A DNA stretch of 64,000 nucleotides, from positions 335,544,001-335,608,000 of the forward strand of contig OZ024740.1 in assembly GCA_964016885.1 (NCBI GenBank), written 5' to 3'. The stretch's first letter is position 1; every line of letters starts with the position of its first letter. Positions 13,834 to 28,366 of the stretch are shown piece by piece. Under the pieces are notes generated by a model. It worked only from the letters and a program-made list of their open reading frames with translations. It did not search any database and had not been told where the DNA came from. Both the position numbers and the translations under genes were made by a program. This DNA comes from Eledone cirrhosa. Lineage: Eukaryota.

Positions 13834-13964
13834 ATATAATATATATATGTGTGTGTGTATGTGTGTATGTGTGTATGTGTGTGTGCTTGGGGGAGTGTAT
13901 AGCCATATACATATGTATGTATTTTATGGCACTCCGCCGGTTGCGACGACAAGTGCTGTGGTTG

Positions 13965-14190
13965 ATGCGATCAACGGAACAGCCTGCTCTTGAAATTAAT
14001 GTGCAAGTGGCTGAGCATTCCAAGGAAAATTATACGCTTAACGTAGTTCTCATGGAGATACATCCTGACACAGTATGTGACAAGGTTACCTCCTTGAAAT
14101 ATATAGTCTTGTTCAAGGAGACAACGTGCCGCCGGGAATCGAACTCACAATCTTACGATTATATGCCAAATACCCTTTCCATTAAGCCAA
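13965..14190 (-). mobile_element. SINE family B-related copy
   Basis: Minus strand has tggcttaatgg..gtgagttcgattcccggc..ccttgaacaagac (B-box + CORE-like). Confidence 0.65.
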
Positions 14191-14202
14191 TAAATGTATG
14201 TA

Positions 14203-14480
14203 AGTAGGTAGGCGGGTTGGTAGGTCTGTAGATAGTTAGTTAGTAGGTAGGTAGGTAGGTAGGTAGGTAGGTAGGCGGGTTGGTAGGTCTGAAGATAGTT
14301 AGTTAGGTAGGTAGGTAGGTAGGTAGGTAGGTAGGTAGGTAGGTAGGTAGATAGGTAGGTAGGTAGGTAGGTAGGTAGGTAGTTAGGAAGGTAGGTAGAT
14401 AGATGGGTAGGTAGGTAGGTAGATAGGTAGGTAGTTAGGTAGGTAGGTATGTGGTAGGTGGGTAGGTAGGTAGGTAGATA
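14203..14480. repeat. (TAGG)n microsatellite, left part
   Basis: Direct reading; scattered TAGA/TAGT variants. Confidence 0.95.
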
Positions 14481-15046
14481 ATTTTCTTTTTACTTGCCAC
14501 CAGGGCATCAAAAGTGGGACAAGTATAATGGGGGGAGTTTACATGCAAAGGCGTCCTCAATATGGAGGAGGCAATAACAAAATAGAAAAATAAAATAAAA
14601 TATAACAAAAAATAAAATTTATAACAAAGTCCTCAATAGAGAGGAGGCGCCTTGGGGGGTCGCACACACCCCCGAAAAAAAGTGTGCAACCCTTCTCCTC
14701 AGGAGGACAGAGAAGGGGTGCTCCCTTGGTCTTTCATCTTCCTCACCTATAGTCTGATGCAGAGTGAAGGCCCATTCACACGGGCCATTCTCGCCACTTT
14801 CACCCATCTTTCATAAAAACGGCTGGGGTGCAGCACCTCTCTCTCCATCCTGATCCTTCTTCCGAAATGATATCGGAAGAAACGGACCAGTTGTTGGCCA
14901 GAGAAAAAGGTGTCTGACCTCAGTCCTTTCAGCCGCGTCCACCATACAACCTCTTTCGCCATGGCTATTACGCACAGAAACAGCGCCTCTCCTTCGTTTT
15001 TAAAGAGGGGAGGCGGCTTGATCGTTACAATAGACTCGGCGGTCAA
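14481..15046 (-). mobile_element. L1/Tx1-type LINE copy A (5'-truncated, 566 bp)
   Basis: Near-identical to 15055-15624; ORF2 C-terminus plus 3' UTR; flanked by ggtagata / ggcagata. Confidence 0.93.
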
Positions 15047-15324
15047 GGCAGATATGTTTCTTTTATTTGCCCCAGGGCATCAAAAGTGGGACAAGTACAA
15101 TGGGGGGGGGGGGGGAGTTTACAAAACAAGGCGTCCTCAGTAAGGAGGAGGCAATAACAATATATAAAAATAAAATAAAATATAACAAAAAATAAAATTT
15201 ATAACAAAGTCCTCAATAGAAGGAGGCGCCTTGGGGGGTCGCACACACCCCCGAAAAAAGTGTGCAACCCTTCTCCTCAGGAGCACAGAGAAGGGGTGCT
15301 CCCTTGGTCTTTCATCTTCCTCAC

Positions 15325-18300
15325 CTATAGTCTGATGTAGAGTGAAGGCCCATTCACACGGGCCATTCTCGCCACTTTCACCCATCTTTCATAAAAACGG
15401 CTGGGGTGCAGCACCTCTCTCTCCATCCTGATCCTTCTTCCGAAATGATATCGGAAGAAACGGACCAGTTGTTGGCCAGAGAGAAAGGTGTCTGACCTCA
15501 GTCCTTTCAGACGCGTCCACCATACAACCTCTTTCGCCATGGCTATTACGCACAGAAACACCGCCTCTCCTTCGTTTTTGAAGAGGGGAGGCGGCTTGAT
15601 CGTTACAATAGACTCGGTGGTCAACCGGATCGGTCCCACCCTTGACAGCAGTTGTTCGACATAGCCCCACAGATCGGCAATGCCCGAGCAGTGTACCAAT
15701 GCGTGTGCAACGGTTTCCTCGTCGCACACGCATCTGGGACATCTTTTTCGATGGGTCTTTACCCGGGCGCCCGTGTCTGTAGAGCCTTTCTCGAACGGGC
15801 AGAGCCCTTTTGTAGCATTGCCAGGCCAGGGACCTCTGGAAGTTATCCATGGGACCCAGGCTGAATGTCCTACCGAACAGGTTGGCCAGTTCGTCTTCCT
15901 CCATGCCTAGGGCTTCTCCGAGGGCGTCGTCCCACCTGCTAACCACCAGCCCTCTATAGAATGACGAGGTGGATTCTCCACTCTCAGCCGGGTCCGCCTG
16001 CCAGAGAGCCGTGAGCGCCTGGGCACACTCGGTGTGCCAGGCGCCCAGTTTTCTCGGTCTTTGCTTGACCCAGGATTGCAGCTCGGTGAGTGAGACGAGT
16101 CTGGGAAAGGCTCGCCTCACAAACGGGGCCCACACCGGTTGACCGGAGAGGAATACCTGGAGGTGCCGTAGCCTTAATGCGTGTTTACGTATCATTAGCC
16201 ACGGCATCCCCAGCCCTCCTTTCGAAGGGTGTCTACAGCAGATTGATCTCCTCACCATAGGAGCCCGCTTCTTCCAAAGGAATTGGAAGAGTGCGCGCTC
16301 CATTTTGGCGAGCGTTTCGCTTGGGCAAGGCACAACGGTCAGGCGGTAGTAGATGACGGACGCTATATAAGTGTTCGCCAGCTCCGCCCGACCTTTCAGG
16401 GACAGTTTGCACTCGGCCCACTTCTGGGTCAGTGCAAACACCCTGGTCGTTACCTCACCCCAGTTCTTCTCCACCTGGAGGTCTGGTCCGAACCAGACCC
16501 CGAGCAACTTCACCGGGCCCTCCGTCCAGCGCCCGACGACGCCATCGGAGGGCATCGATCTGCCCCTCCACGTGCCGAGTTGCAGACCGATCGACTTGTC
16601 CAGGTTCAGCTTAGCCCCTGTAAACCTTTCGTACTCCTCCAGTAAGGTGCCGATCGCCCCGATTTCCGAGGCCGTAGACACCATTACTGTTACGTCGTCG
16701 GCGTAGGCCGACATCGCTTTCCGCAATCCCGGTTCCAACGGGATGCCCTGCAACAACTCCAACTTCCGCAGCAGTGGCTCTAGAGTCATTACATACAGAA
16801 GGGAGGAGAGAGGGCACCCCTGTCGGATGGGCCGCGCGATTTCGAACGGCTCCGAGAGGTAGCCGTTCACCTTGACCCTAGAGCAGATGCGGCTGCTGTG
16901 CATGGCATTGATCCAGCCCCTGAACACGGGTCCGAAGCCTGCCGCCACTAGCACCGCATCCAGGTATCCATGGTCGACCCTATCGAATGCCTTAGATTGA
17001 TCCAAGTTGATCAGGACCCCACCAACGCCGGGTTCGTTCCCAACCCTCTCTATGATGTATCGCATGAGGTGGAGATTGTCGTGGATGGACCTGGACGGGA
17101 TAGCACATGTCTGCGCATCTCCCACCAGGTTGCCCACGACAAGTGCCAACCTCTTTGCTAGCACCTTGGCCAAAATCTGTAACTCTGTATTTAGCAGAGT
17201 TATGGGCCTGAAATTATTTATATCGCCCCCTTGTTCTCGTCCTTCCTCACTAGCGTGACTACGCCCTTGGTCACAGCACAGGGAATTCTCCCGTTCTGTT
17301 GCCAGTTGCAGTAGACCGCCTCGAGGAGATTGGGGAACAAGTCCGGCATAGCTAGATATAGTTCGTATGGAAGACCATCGAGACCCGGGGATTTGCGTTT
17401 GCCGCATTGGCTCAGCACGTCCTCTATCTCAGCGGCTGAAATCGGCTCCTCGCAGGACTTCGCCTCCCTGTCCGAGAGACGCGGCAGGCCATCGAGGTAT
17501 GGACCGAAGTCCACATCCCCAACCGGCTACCCGCCCCTTCCGAACAATCCGGCAAAATGCTTTTGAAAAGCCTCGAACAACTGCTTAGGTTCAAGGATCA
17601 CCCGTCCATCCTGGTCTCACAAAGACCGGATAGTGGATCTGCTCCCTCTTTTGGCTTCTGTCAGGCGGGCCCAGCTAACAGCTTTGGTCCCCTCGTTTCC
17701 CAGAGCACGTATTTTGCTTCGGACGATGCAGCCTTCGTGTTTCGCGTCGAAGAACTGGCCCAGGGCCGTTCTTGACGCTAGCACTCTGGCCACGTCGCCG
17801 CTTCTAATTGCCTCTTCTACACTATCTACCAATTCCCTTTCCTTCTTGTTTCTATTAGAGGCTAACTCCTTACTAAATTCTATAGAGACTACTCTAATCT
17901 CTCTTTTGAGAGATCCCCAACCACCTGCTGTTGACGATGGCGCCCGTCAACCGCTCCTTAACTAAAGTGCTAATCCGGTCCCTGTAAGCCTTACTTGCCG
18001 GTAAGGACAAGTTGAGCTTCCAGTAACCGGGTCCCTGTCTATGAGTTCTGTCAAGGTTGACCATGCAGGTCACTAACTTGTGGTCTGAATAGCCAACCAT
18101 GAGCATTTTTGGACAACTTAAAAAGTCCTTATCCTTAATTCTAACTAAGAACCTATCTAGGTACGACCTAGATGATCCGCTACGATTTGCCCAAGTCCAG
18201 GTTGGCGCAGTCGGAAAATCTAGTCTATATCTATCGGCCAGGTCAAATCGACCGATTAACCCTTTGAGGCTATTGCACCCCTCTCTATCGGGACAGGCCC

Positions 18301-18758
18301 CTACGTAGTCCCAGCGTGCATCTAGGATACCATTCCAGTCCCCCACTAATAGCAAGGAGCGGGACGTCCCTAGAAAAGTCTCCAGACGATGGAAGAAGTC
18401 CGGCCGCATTGACCCGAAAGGGCCGTAGGCGGCTACCAACCTAAACGCTCCGCCTTCACCACTGCCAACGTCCAGAACCACTAGTCGACCCTCCGGGTCC
18501 AAATGTACCATCTGTGTTGCGAGACCCAGATGTTTTTGCAGCAGAACGACAACCCCACCCCCACCACCGGGCTGACAGAGAGATGCGTGCATCTCAAAGT
18601 CATCAAAGGGGGGGGAGCTGTCGCACGTTGCTGATCCGGGCCTCACAAATAACCATTACATCTATACGTTGTAACCTGAGGTCATTTAGAAGCATTGCTT
18701 GCTTCCAAGTTGAGCCCAGGCCACGCGCATTTAAACAGCCTACTCTTAGCATAGCCAT
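15325..18758 (-). pseudogene. LINE ORF2 (APE endonuclease + reverse transcriptase + C-terminal Zn finger), several frameshifts
   Basis: MAMLRVGCLNARGL start; GDWN, LDRF, SDH (APE); KSPGLDG, NFRPITLLN, LDQSKAFDRV, RQGCPLS, AYADD (RT); CxxC..ETVAHALVHC. Confidence 0.92.
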
Positions 18759-18782
18759 GTTGGTGGTGAAGAGAAAAGGCAC

Positions 18783-20726
18783 TTACCTCTCTGCGTCCCG
18801 GGTATCGGGCTGCACAATTTCCATTAGGGTGGGGGATGGGTTGTTGGGTGGGTGGTGGTTTCTGGCGGGGTGGGGACGGAGATGTTTGGTGGGGAAGGGG
18901 TGTCTGGTGGGGTGGGGATGACTTGGGTGGGGGTGTCTTTGGTGGGGAGGCCTTTGTAGAGGACGCGGTTGATTGGTTTCACGCAGGAATTCCCCACGTC
19001 CTCTACAAATGTTTCTTTTAGGGATCTATATGTTCCTATAGGGACCCTGATCAGTTTTAGGTTCATTTTTTGTTTTTGTTGGAGCTATCCAAAGTTTTCC
19101 CTTCGGTTTTGACCAAAGGGTTGTTTCTGATGGTCTCCATCAGTGTTCTATTTTCTTCGTTTATGTAAGTGTATGTGTACTTTTCCTGTGTTGTGTTTGT
19201 TTTTGTCTGTGGTTCCTGCACGTGTTTTCTCTTTGTTGTGGGTGTTTTGTTTTCGGGAGGGGGAACTTTTGTTTGTGATTTTTGTGCTGTTTGTGCTGGT
19301 GTTTGTGTGTTTGTTTCGTTTTTGTTCATGCGGTTCTTTCTTTTTATTCTTTTCACGGGTTGGAAGGGTTCCTCCTCATCGCCGCTGTGTGCCGTCGATA
19401 GGGGTTCCTCATCCGTGTTGATGGGTAGGAGTATGTTTTGGGGTTCTGTAGTGTCTGTGTGTGTTTTTGTATTTGTTTTGGGTGGGGAGGAGTTGGGTGG
19501 AATATTGTTCTCTGTTGTTTTTTCTTGTTGTCGTGGTGGTGGTGGTGGTGGTTGTGTTGTTATTTGTGGTGTTGGTAAAAGTGGGTTTTTTTTGTCAATT
19601 GAGGACAGGCAGCCCTTAGGTGACCTCTGCTTGCGCAGTGGTAACATGCGGACCGCCTACCCTCAACCGAAATGTTTATGTAGGTCTGTCCATCCAGAGG
19701 TACTCTCTGTGGGATTTTCATTATACGTTCTGGGCTCATCTGCACCAGAATTTCGATGCTAGTCCCACTAAATATATCTCTGGAGGATTTTCCTACTGAG
19801 ATCAAAGTGTCTTGTTCAAGGTCAATTAGGCTATAAAGTATCCACCAAATATCTACTTTGGGTCTTATACATGTAATTTTTATTTTTTGCGTTCTTTTTA
19901 CCATGTATGTAGGGAAAAAGGGAAAATGGGTGGACACAATGGGCGCGATGGAATAGTTTTGTGCTGTTATGTTGTTTTTCATTAGCACCGAGATGGTGCC
20001 GAAAAGTTTGGCTTTCTAGAATAAATAAAATGTTATCCATGTGGTTCCTTAATACTAGCTCAATCTCACTCTGAGATAGTTGAGCTGGTTTTTTTTATGC
20101 ATTTGAGATTGTCCTGAAAACCACCGTGTTCAGGGCATTTTCTCTCCTTCGTTCTTGTGGTGAATTTATGCTAAATGACCCATTGGGTCCAAAAGCACAT
20201 ATTGTTTAGCATCTTCCAACTTTTGTTTCGTGTTGGTTAAATCCAAAAGTTGAAATATTTCCGTTTTTTTTACGGTATCAGCAAAAGAAATTTTGCTTTT
20301 GTTGTCACTGTTGTTTGTATTTTCTTTGGTGTTTGTGTTGACATTTTTTTCCTTTTGATTGGTATTGTTGGACGTGTTTTCAATTTTTTCATTTTCTGTA
20401 TTTTTTGGTGTCTATTGTGGGCTGTTATTTTCATTTTTTGTTGTGTGAAATTCCCTTTCTTTACGAAAGGAAGTGTTTACTACATATGTGACGTTTGTGT
20501 TGTTGTTGTTTTTGTTGTCTTTATTGTTGCTGTTGTCGTTGTTGTTGTTGTTTTCAGTTTCTTGTATAGTTGTGGCTACATCAAGTTGTCGGTCAGCGGG
20601 TGGAGAAAATTCTTCCTCTGGCTGACCTCTGCCTTTGGCATCTGCTGCTGTGACAGTGGCAGGGGGAAGCTGTGAGTATGACTTCCCTTTTTTTCGTTTG
20701 AATGTTGGTGAAGATGCTTCAGCCAT
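18783..20726 (-). pseudogene. LINE ORF1 (gag-like, zinc knuckle), frameshifted
   Basis: Fragments 20412-20735, 19560-19988 (CYHCASRGHLRAAC), 19063-19647 and 18824-19066; Pro/Thr/Lys-rich tail. Confidence 0.75.
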
Positions 20727-20978
20727 TTTTATCAAAATAGGATTTTTCGAAATTTTTCGAAAGTTAAATATTTACAACACTATTTCGCCTAAAGGCGTAG
20801 AATATTTTGAGAGACTAACCAGATCAAAATTTGACCTGGCAGTCCCTCTACAAAATGGTACGAAAATGAACGTTTACAGTTCACAATTTCCAGATAAATT
20901 TAAACGTAACTTACCGAGCGAGCTCAGCACATTTGTCCATCGTAAGAGAGATTAGGTAGATAGGTAGGTAAGTAGATA

Positions 20979-22970
20979 TGTTTCTTTTATTTGCCACCAG
21001 GGCATCAAAAGTGGGACAAGTACAATGGGGGGGGGAGTTTACAAAACAAGGCGTCCTCAATAAGGAGGAGGCAATAACAATATATAAAAATAAAATAAAA
21101 TATAACAAAAAATAAAATTTATAACAAAGTCCTCAATAGAGAGGAGGCGCCTTGGGGGGTCGCACACGCCCCCGAAAAAAAGTGTGCAACCCTTTTCCTC
21201 AGGAGCACAGAGAAGGGGTGCTCCCTTGGTCTTTCATCTTCCTCACCTATAGTCTGATATAGAGTGAAGGCCCATTCACACGGGCCATTCTCGCCACTTT
21301 CACCCATCTTTCATAAAAACGGCTGGGGTGCAGCACCTCTCTCTCCATCCTGATCCTTCTTCCGAAATGATATCGGAAGAAACGGACCAGTTGTTGGCCA
21401 GAGAGAAAGGTGTCTGACCTCAGTCCTTTCAGACGCGTCCACCATACAACCTCTTTCGCCATGGCTATTACGCACAGAAACACCGCCTCTCCTTCGTTTT
21501 TGAAGAAGGGAGGCGGCTTGATCGTTACAATAGACTCGGTGGTCAACCGGATCGGTCCCACCCTTGACAGCAGTTGTTCGACATAGCCCCACAGATCGAC
21601 AATGCCCGAGCAGTGTACCAATGCGTGTGCAACGGTTTCCTCGTCGCACACGCATCTGGGACAGATCTTTTTCGATGGGTCTTTACCCGGGCGCCCGTGT
21701 CTGTAGAGCCTTTCTCGAACGGGCAGAGCCCTTCTGTAGCATTGCCAGGCCAGGGACCTCTGGAAGTTATCCATGGGTCCCGGGCTGAATGTCCTACCGA
21801 ACAGGTTGGCCAGTTCGTCTTCCTCCATGCCTAGGGCTTCTCCGAGGGCGTCGTCCCACCTGCTAACCACCAGCCCTCTATAGAATGACGAGGAGGATTC
21901 TCCACTGACAGCCGGGTCCGCCTGCCAGAGAGCCGTGAGCGCCTGGGCACACTCGGTGTGCCAGGCGCCCAGTTTTCTCGGTCTTTGCTTGACCCAGGAT
22001 TTCAGCTCGGTGAGTGAGACGAGTCTGGGAAAGGCTCGCCTCACAAACGGGGCCCACACCGGTTGACCGGAGAGGAATACCTGGAGGTGCCGTAGCCTTA
22101 ATGCGTGTTTACGTATCATTAGCCACGGCATCCCCAGCCCTCCTTTCGAAGGGTGTCTACAGCAGATTGATCTCCTCACCATAGGAGCCCGCTTCTTCCA
22201 AAGGAATTGGAAGAGTGCGCGCTCCATTTTGGCGAGCGTTTCGCTTGGGCAAGGCACAACGGTCAGGCGGTAGTAGATGACGGACGCTATATAAGTGTTC
22301 GCCGCCTCCGCCCGACCTTTCAGGGACAGTTTGCACTCGGCCCACTTCTGGGTCAGTGCAAACACCCTGTTCGTTACCTCACCCCAGTTCTTCTCCACCT
22401 GGAGGTCTGGTCCGAACCAGACCCCGAGCAACTTCACCGGGCCCTCCGTCCAGCGCCCGACGACGCCATCGGAGGGCATCGATCTGCCTCTCCACGTGCC
22501 GAGTTGCAGACCGATCGACTTATCCCGGTTCAGCTTAGCCCCTGTAAACCTTTCGTACTCCTCCAGTAAGGTGCCGATCGCCCCGATTTCCGAGGCCGTA
22601 GACACCATTACTGTTACGTCATCGGCGTAGGCTGACACCGCTTTCCGCAATCGCGGTTCCAACGGGATGCCCTGCAACAACTCCAACTTCCGCAGCAGTG
22701 GCTCTAGAGTCATTACATACAGAAGGGAGGAGAGAGGGCACCCCTGTCGGATGGACCGCGCGATTTCGAACGGCTCCGAGAGGTAGCCGTTCACCTTGAC
22801 CCTAGAGCAGATGCGGCTGCTGTGCATGGCATTGATCCAGCCCCTGAAAACGGGTCCGAAGCCTGCCGCCGCTAGCACCGCATCCAGGTAACTATGGTCG
22901 ACCCTATCGAATGCCTTAGATTGATCCAAGTTGATCAGGGCCCCACCAAAGCCGGGTTCGTTCCCAACCC
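20979..22970 (-). mobile_element. L1/Tx1-type LINE copy C (5'-truncated, ~2 kb)
   Basis: Near-identical to 15055-17047; TSD tagata at 20973-20978 and 22971-22976. Confidence 0.93.
21247..22929 (-). CDS. Uninterrupted C-terminal 560 aa of LINE ORF2 (RT + Zn finger); partial
   Basis: ORF track; SIRQGCPLS, AYADD, CPRCVCDEETVAHALVHC. Confidence 0.85.
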   Translation of the reverse strand: MDQSKAFDRVDHSYLDAVLAAAGFGPVFRGWINAMHSSRICSRVKVNGYLSEPFEIARSIRQGCPLSSLLYVMTLEPLLRKLELLQGIPLEPRLRKAVSAYADDVTVMVSTASEIGAIGTLLEEYERFTGAKLNRDKSIGLQLGTWRGRSMPSDGVVGRWTEGPVKLLGVWFGPDLQVEKNWGEVTNRVFALTQKWAECKLSLKGRAEAANTYIASVIYYRLTVVPCPSETLAKMERALFQFLWKKRAPMVRRSICCRHPSKGGLGMPWLMIRKHALRLRHLQVFLSGQPVWAPFVRRAFPRLVSLTELKSWVKQRPRKLGAWHTECAQALTALWQADPAVSGESSSSFYRGLVVSRWDDALGEALGMEEDELANLFGRTFSPGPMDNFQRSLAWQCYRRALPVRERLYRHGRPGKDPSKKICPRCVCDEETVAHALVHCSGIVDLWGYVEQLLSRVGPIRLTTESIVTIKPPPFFKNEGEAVFLCVIAMAKEVVWWTRLKGLRSDTFLSGQQLVRFFRYHFGRRIRMEREVLHPSRFYERWVKVARMARVNGPSLYIRL

Positions 22971-23572
22971 TAGATAGGTAGGTAGGTAGGTAGGTAGGTA
23001 GGTAGGTAGGTAGGTAGGTAGGTAGGTAGGTAGGTAGGTAGGCAGGTATGTATGTAGTTAGGTAGGTAGGTAGGTAGGCAGGTAGGTAGGTAGGTAGGTA
23101 GGTAGGTAGGTAGGTAGGTAGGTAGGTAGGTAGATAGCTAGGTAGGCAGGTATGTATGTAGTTAGGTAGGTAGGTAGGTAGGTAGGTAGGTAGGTAGGTA
23201 GGTATGAAGTTAGGTAGGTATGAAGTTAGGTAGGTAGGTTGGTAGGTAGGTAGGTAGGTAGGTAGGTAGGTAGATAGGTAGGTAGTTAGGTAGGTAGTTA
23301 GGTAGGCAGGTATGTATGTATTTAGGTAGGTAGGTAGGTAGGTAGGTAGGTAGGTAGATAGGTAGGTAGTTAGGTAGGCAGGTATGTATGTATTTAGGTA
23401 GGTAGGTAGGTAGGTAGGTAGGTAGGTAGGTAGATAGGTAGGTAGGTAGGTAGGTAGTTAGTTAGGTAGGTAGGTAGGTAGGTAGTTAGGTAGGTAGGTA
23501 TTTAGTTAGGTAGGTAGGTAGGTAGGTAGGTAGGTAGGTAGGTAGGTAGGTAGGTAGGAAGGCAGGTAGGTA
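22971..23572. repeat. (TAGG)n microsatellite, right part (~600 bp)
   Basis: Direct reading. Confidence 0.95.
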
Positions 23573-26984: not shown

Positions 26985-27610
26985 ACACAATCTGAAAAAT
27001 AGACTCACTCACTCTTGTCATTTGCGTTACATTCACTCATCACTGGTCCCCACATTCCTCTCCAAGTGAAACTTGAAAACGTAGCTTAAACCTTTAATCA
27101 GAGGGTAACGTGTCTATCTTCACTTCTTTCACGATTGCTCACCACACAATCACTTTCTCCACAACCATCAGACAGGAAACCTACTCTATTTTCCCTGCTG
27201 ACGAAAGGTGGTGAGTCGACCTTCACGATGGATATAGTCGATGCCCGAATACGTTCTAGACGAGGCGGCAGTTAGGCATTGGAAAAATGTATGAAGAAGT
27301 GTATCGATCTTTGGCTCTTGTCTCGGACACGACTGTCTGAGAGCATTTCTATGCCTGTAGATTTCATCTCGAACCGGCAATCCCTCCGGTTAACACTGAC
27401 AGGCCAGAAAATTCTGGAAATTATCCGTAGACCCCGGGCGGAAAGTCCTTTGGAACAGACAGGTCAGTGTGGTCTCACCGACAGCCGTAACTTCTGCGAG
27501 AATCTCGACACGCTTCTCCATTAATAATCTTCCATAGATTGCTAATGTAGAACTCCCATCGATCACAATGCCGAAGCGGTTGAGAGTTGTAAATGCTTGA
27601 CAATATTCTA
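26985..27610 (-). mobile_element. Older divergent relative of the Tx1-type LINE (ORF2 C-terminus)
   Basis: LFQRTFRPGSTDNFQNFLACQC*..LPVRDEIYRH..CPR and VNVTQMTRV align by eye with LFGRTFSPGPMDNFQRSLAWQC..LPVRERLYRH..CPR and VKVARMARV of copy C. Confidence 0.75.
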
Positions 27611-28366
27611 GATACGAGGATGATGTTGATGATGACGATCACGGATGTAGTGATGAGGATGAGAAGGAGGATCATCATGATGATGATGATAATCTTTATG
27701 ATTATCATTATGATCGGGGTGATCATGTTGATCACGATGATCTTAATTGAAGTGAAAGTATAAGCAGATTTTCTTTAATTTTATTTGTGTTGTTACTATT
27801 GTGGTAGGAACTAAAATATTTAGATTTATTACTGTCTCTCGAACACTAAATAATAGACTATTGGTTTCTGGAAGTGTTGTTTGGGGAACACTTGTCAGAC
27901 GTGTAGGAACACATGGGATATAGGTGTGGCAATTCTCAACATTTACTCATCACATTAACCAGATAAAATCTGAGGTTCTTTCATATATATGCCTGAATAA
28001 ACGACTGCCTCTCACACTTACTCGCTTCTCTCTTCTTAAGCATCTGACAAGCAATCGATTGTTATTTCTTATTCAATAGTCAGTGAAACTGAACTAAGGT
28101 AAAAATTCCTATTACAATAATAACAACAGGGTTAACTGAAAAGGAAACACATTTCTTGAACGAGTACAGTTAAAGTATAAGTTATTTTTGCCTCTTGCAA
28201 GTGGAAATGATAATTATATTAATATATTTTGAAGAAGTTTTTTCACATTTTCTTATCATGTGTTCTCGATAAAATATGACAGACGACAAACAAAATAACT
28301 TTGACAGACAAATCAATAAGTCTAATTCGATAATTTCATAACATCTCCAAAAATTATATTTATCTC

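Follow-up and report, generated by a model that had tools for sequence, protein, structure and literature searches.

Three Copies of One LINE in a TAGG Array

The window analyzed here, a 64-kb stretch of Eledone cirrhosa DNA, contains three minus-strand copies of one LINE (A, B and C) between two parts of a single (TAGG)n array, which raises the question of what sequence this element recognizes when it inserts. The initial annotation held that a Tx1-type LINE had been inserted three times at one variant motif of the array, GGTAGATA|GGTAGG. The layout of the locus is given in Table 1; TRF places TAGG-type arrays at 14196-14477 and 22971-23572.

Table 1. Features of the LINE-bearing TAGG array (window coordinates; residues of ORF2 in L100 numbering, L100 being a naturally open relative)
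Feature	Position	Strand	Evidence
Left (TAGG)n part with minority TAGA units, ending in target/TSD copy TAGGTAGATA at 14471-14480	14196..14480	.	
Copy A, 5'-truncated, 566 bp: 3' UTR and ORF2 residues 1047-1145	14481..15046	-	
TSD copy separating A from B, GGCAGATA, with one mismatch relative to GGTAGATA	15047..15054	.	
Copy B, full length but broken, 5.9 kb	15055..20952 (5' end about 20941-20952)	-	
ORF2 of copy B: APE, RT, zf-RVT	15325..18758	-	Pfam PF03372, PF00078, PF13966; tblastn with L100 ORF2
ORF1 region of copy B, several pieces, one CCHC knuckle	19063..20726	-	ORF list
26-bp spacer: B's TSD copy TAGGTAGATA (20953-20962), 10 array bases, C's target TAGATA (20973-20978)	20953..20978	.	
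Copy C, 5'-truncated inside RT, 2.0 kb	20979..22970 (or 22971)	-	
C's TSD copy TAGATA (22971-22976) and right (TAGG)n part	22971..23572	.	

The three copies are indeed co-oriented with different 5' ends, and they are 94.5-98.0% identical to one another where compared (B and C 98.0% over 2003 nt, A and B 94.5% over 583 nt). When the junctions were read, the TAGATA/CAGATA-type motifs were found where the annotation had placed them: AGATA precedes the 3' end of each copy and a duplicate of the motif lies beyond each 5' end. The junction motif at 15046-15054 reads AGGCAGATA, the A at 15046 being common to the TSD and the element, and the terminal two bases of copy A are unlike the family terminus. 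The notion of one variant motif did not hold up, given that the site of C reads AAGTAGATA|GGTAGG and the middle A/B copy differs again (Table 1). Likewise, the proposal that A and B share a TSD is correct, but a single target site for all copies is not, because A and B occupy a first target site and C a second, at a distance of 16 bp. The element has struck two TAGA units of the TAGG array, one of them twice. Once the TSD copies are subtracted, 897 bp of array are left, containing 11 AGATA sites, and the chance that two independent insertions would both fall at AGATA within this length is ~1.5e-4.

The exact 10-bp TSD of B (14471-14480 and 20953-20962) fits an earlier insertion of B followed by that of A into the left TSD of B. 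Given, however, that A is the copy most diverged from the family (best family match 96.8%; the values for B and C are 97.9% and 98.6%), A and B could have been inserted in either order. Several copies can also stem from one insertion through local duplication or mis-assembly, as happens elsewhere: at L249/L250 (contig C1:271079300-271092600), a two-element unit is repeated at 99.6% identity, and at L169/L170, three copies have one common 5' breakpoint, so that, judging from their sequences, both arrays look like tandem duplications or assembly repeats rather than re-insertions. For the window, such an origin is scarcely credible, since no two copies share a 5' end, the divergence among them is 2-5.5% and every copy is bounded by a TSD pair of its own.

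Two further features lie near the array. On the left, it is adjoined by a SINE-like stretch (window about 13940-14195), which may resemble an octopus SINE. A fragment of the C-terminus of a related ORF2, old and distant (35% amino acid identity), is found at 27249-27614, beside a degenerate (GAT)n run.

The Main Target Genome-Wide Is (GATA)n

The genome-wide examination of 3'-end flanks that the initial annotation called for was based on exact matches to the 31-nt 3' end of the family across the whole genome (3.0 Gb). There are 1,448 such ends, of which 1,207 are preceded by AGATA (pattern AGATA+TG); the remaining 241 do not read AGATA+TG and represent junction variants or other sites. The flanks thus share AGATA, and both this count and the TSDs described below agree with the proposed sequence-specific insertion and with a presumed first nick after AGATA on the strand that reads GATA. 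The longer motif AGATAGATA precedes 814 of the 1,448 ends, whereas in the window DNA outside the locus, which serves as background, AGAT precedes AGATA at only 2 of 218 sites.

Both flanks were inspected for the first 80 of the 1,448 copies in coordinate order (contig C1). In these 80 copies, positions -7 to -1 read A77 T68 A80 G71 A79 T80 A79, and the flank ends in AGATA in 69, in ATATA in eight and in another five-base sequence in three. At least two GATA units are present within 24 nt of flank in 48 of the 80. A family has been considered target-specific when one sequence type makes up >20% of its flanks (PMC4494074), a level that is exceeded here by both the GATA-rich flanks and the AGATA ends.

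A narrower specificity, for TAGA units embedded in (TAGG)n, is suggested by the window itself, where all three copies fit, and TAGG-embedded TAGA sites are real targets that are not avoided: 12 ends per 761 such sites genome-wide compare with 814 per 208,487 overlapping GATA-run sites, a rough ratio because the two patterns differ in length. Nevertheless, only 12 of the 1,448 ends follow GGTAGATA, at least two TAGG units occur in one of the 80 flanks and G at -7 in one of the 80 copies, so TAGG specificity has next to nothing to commend it; GGTAGATA|GGTAGG, or TAGG arrays in general, as the main target is refuted. The family is site-specific, with (GATA)n rather than (TAGG)n as its main target, and the window locus is a true but unusual instance of this target.

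A TSD of at least 6 nt was found in 50 of the 80 copies. The other 30 yielded none: in many of them the 5' end is unmapped, and some may lack a TSD; the automated 5'-motif calls for L092, L108 and L144 were false, and none of these gave a TSD. Among the 50, 17 non-periodic TSDs were chosen by eye. These are 9-23 nt long, including microhomology, and end in AGATA (14/17) or ATATA (3/17). Because the TSDs end in AGATA, this motif belongs to the target and not, as an alternative would have it, to the 3' tail of the element, which bears out the initial annotation on this point. In addition, L140 and L143, whose 5' ends differ, are separate insertions into different copies of an unrelated dispersed repeat, both at its single AGATA|G site.

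These junctions also bear on the idea that insertion is random, with copies retained preferentially in microsatellites, or that the GATA repeats grew from the 3' tail of the element. The flanking GATA runs are often long, and the 30 copies without a TSD would accord with such an origin. It is nonetheless very improbable, given the base-precise junction and fixed orientation, the presence of AGATA in both TSD copies at unique sites, the GATA runs also found beyond truncated 5' ends and the repeated use of one site in an unrelated repeat.

Another 3' end of the family lies on the same strand at 36 of the 80 loci and on the opposite strand at two (a few of these loci overlap). The claim that each TSD regenerates the target, so that arrays grow, is accordingly upheld by the same-strand ends but does not extend to all arrays, some of which are the duplications mentioned above. 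Several more diverged families, whose DNA is about 72-83% identical close to the 3' end, occupy GATA runs too.

A Tx1-Like LINE of an Octopod Lineage

ORF2 of copy B is broken into five frame pieces with two in-frame stops, and copy C has an open frame for ORF2 residues about 570-1145. The comparisons were therefore made with L100, whose ORF2 encodes 1,145 aa. This protein matches Tx1L of Xenopus laevis (P14381) with 310.5 bits and 30% identity, compared with 151 bits for human L1 ORF2p and at most 75 for R2 (same query and E-value scale). The ORF2 features of the L1 group and APE-type LINEs are present according to Pfam, namely an N-terminal APE, RT and a C-terminal zinc motif, and the 5' truncations, precise 3' end and variable TSDs of the family are as expected for such elements. 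Copy B, which is 96.5% identical to the full-length copy L104, contains AATAAA at 15062-15067 and is without poly(A); its core 5' end is at 20941, with 11 extra bases beyond (20942-20952) ending in GAGAGAT.

In the Tx1 clade, ORF1 is of the CCHC/RRM type rather than Transposase_22 (PMC5203782). A weak zf-CCHC match, below the Pfam cut-off, was detected in ORF1 of copy B (E 0.0015), L100 and L095 and none in L127, and Transposase_22 was absent from all four in the Pfam search. By domain content (APE, RT, zf-RVT and a CCHC ORF1) and similarity scores, the family is classified as a Tx1-like LINE, in keeping with the annotation's assignment.

Five copies (L100, L131, L134, L143 and L165) have the same 3' end as B and a diverged ORF1 region, with overall identity of 86-89% vs. 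96.5% for L104. This divergence suggests, at the sequence level, subfamilies that differ in their 5' halves.

Among named homologues, one from Argonauta hians is closest, with 65% identity in RT, and RT identity to the named vertebrate Tx1 proteins is 34-41%. A quick RT tree places the octopod lineage apart from the latter, with a poorly resolved base, no L1 row and a very long outgroup branch. Nearest to the octopod lineage is an unnamed ORF2 group (P0003-P0081, from ENA/JGI assemblies, in clusters of up to 732 members), at about 50% RT identity. A homologue search with APE only returned unnamed proteins only.

Sister Families in TAA Repeats

Among the diverged ends, three, from two families, sat in TAA or GAA runs. 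These two sister families have 7,896 and 1,234 exact 3' ends genome-wide. At least three TAA units are present in the flank of 26 and 27, respectively, of the first 30 copies of each family, and three GATA units in none of the first 30 of either. Copies of these families (L171-L230) are occasionally located in (GAA)n or (TAG)n, and many follow one another at intervals of about 6 kb, like the units of tandem arrays.

In the RT tree, the 13 rows of GATA families form one group and the nine rows of the TAA families another, with SH-aLRT of 99-100, although the clustering is partly built in because the labels were set by family terminus; the tree, made by a quick method, includes 50 of 60 rows, the 10 dropped for short RT coverage including the only S2-family row. 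The two groups show about 60% identity in APE and 71-75% in RT. Fixed APE differences between them cluster at residues 47-66 and also include position 194, in the loop aligned to the L1 hairpin, and this aligned loop is two residues shorter here than in Tx1L. In L1, grafting of hairpin loops changes nicking (PMC1950540). Open ORF2 copies exist for both the GATA and the TAA families. It is possible, and we put this forward tentatively, that a previously undescribed octopod Tx1-related lineage, with open ORF2 copies on both sides, has split into sister clades that nick (GATA)n and (TAA)n, respectively, through changes in APE, and that its microsatellite targeting evolved apart from that of vertebrate Kibi and Koshi.

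A Model of Insertion

Target-primed reverse transcription is established LINE biology. The insertion motif, its occurrence inside the TSDs, the fixed orientation, the domain content and the lack of poly(A) at the junctions that were read are direct observations. This Tx1-like family inserts right after AGATA in a single orientation, for the most part in (GATA)n, and we propose that it probably does so by way of a putative APE nick and priming at that point. The GATA strand would be cut first, APE nicking it at 5'-ATAGATA|G-3', by analogy with the endonuclease of Tx1L, which is sequence-specific (PMC1950540). Since the element lies antisense to the GATA strand, the ...AGATA end would be the primer under target-primed reverse transcription, and the nicked 3' end thus likely primes DNA synthesis. 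A second nick, upstream and on the other strand, would then generate a TSD of roughly 8-20 bp. Each TSD would leave a fresh AGATA on both sides, such that later copies, including those of sister GATA families, could accumulate in head-to-tail arrays. Selectivity may be increased further by short stretches of pairing between the nicked strand and the 3' end of the RNA.

The last element could, in principle, account for the entire pattern. If the endonuclease were loose and transcripts read through into the downstream (TATC)n flank, these would pair with nicked GATA ends, and only such nicks would prime. Consistent with this scheme, the bases at -1 to -7 are near-invariant, the junctions are without poly(A), with AATAAA only 7 bases from the end, and bases on the primer side of the nick are far better conserved than those beyond it, a pattern that RNA-DNA pairing would also predict. 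Furthermore, additional GAGAT/AGAT units separate the core 5' end from the TSD in full-length copies at non-GATA sites (B, L131 and L143), suggesting transcripts that overlap the flanking repeat or start in the upstream repeat of the source copy, and pairing between RNA and target has been proposed as an added factor (PMC1950540). However, mismatched targets (AAATATA in L156 and L164) are left uncorrected and are identical in both TSD copies. Beyond the nick, G and A are enriched, in 12/17 and 13/17 of the non-periodic TSDs, respectively; for the base directly after the nick position, G compares with 29/218 in the background, an enrichment confounded by sites at repeat edges. The APE domains of the GATA and TAA families also differ at many fixed columns. 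Selection by pairing on its own therefore seems unlikely, if less so than the other alternatives considered here, and nicking by APE, which we favor, and RNA pairing can act together.

Relationship to Known Microsatellite-Specific Elements

Waldo and Mino are R1-related, and Dong belongs to R4. These non-LTR elements are specific for microsatellites, Waldo for (ACAY)n, Mino for (AC)n and Dong for (TAA)n (PMC3812793), as is Togen for (TG)n (PMC4640811); the present family resembles all of them in this respect, and the TAA target of Dong is also that of the sister families. Closer to the present family, Kibi inserts into (TC)n, Koshi into (TTC)n and crocodilian Tx1 families into (TTCC)n/(TTTC)n (PMC4494074, PMC3812793). 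All of these are, like the present family, Tx1-type APE LINEs that prefer one microsatellite class, but the target is (GATA)n here and (TAA)n in the sister families, in contrast to those of Kibi and Koshi. Membership in Kibi or Koshi was rejected given the (GATA)n target and the position of the lineage outside the fish/turtle/frog group, the named Kibi and Koshi not having been identified among the rows of the tree. Because the lineage falls outside the named vertebrate Tx1 group, at the low RT identity given above, its preference for microsatellites is likely independent of that of vertebrate Tx1, as far as sequence comparison goes. With Tx1L, the family shares an APE-RT ORF2 and site-specific insertion, but the target of Tx1L is a DNA transposon sequence rather than (GATA)n (PMC1950540, PMC4494074).

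In Octopus vulgaris, 13 recently active L1-Tx1 families have been described (PMC13282606), and the present family may be among them; that account gives no target preference, the words "target" and "GATA" having no occurrence in its main text. The target list of a review comprises ACAY, AC, TC, TTC and TAA, and GATA is absent from that list (PMC3812793). Our own search, confined to the openly available literature as distinct from Repbase, Dfam and full Tx1 target lists, found no GATA-targeting LINE. Thus, microsatellite-specific Tx1 elements are already known, and it is the (GATA)n target that is apparently new and the contrast between sister clades that is useful.

As of 2013, the mechanism of microsatellite targeting was not well understood (PMC3812793). 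Sister groups that occupy different repeats in one genome, at thousands of sites and with open ORF2s, provide a natural pair for mapping APE specificity. Given that LINE insertions are frequent at the GATA and TAA microsatellite loci of this genome, the finding also bears on marker design and repeat annotation.
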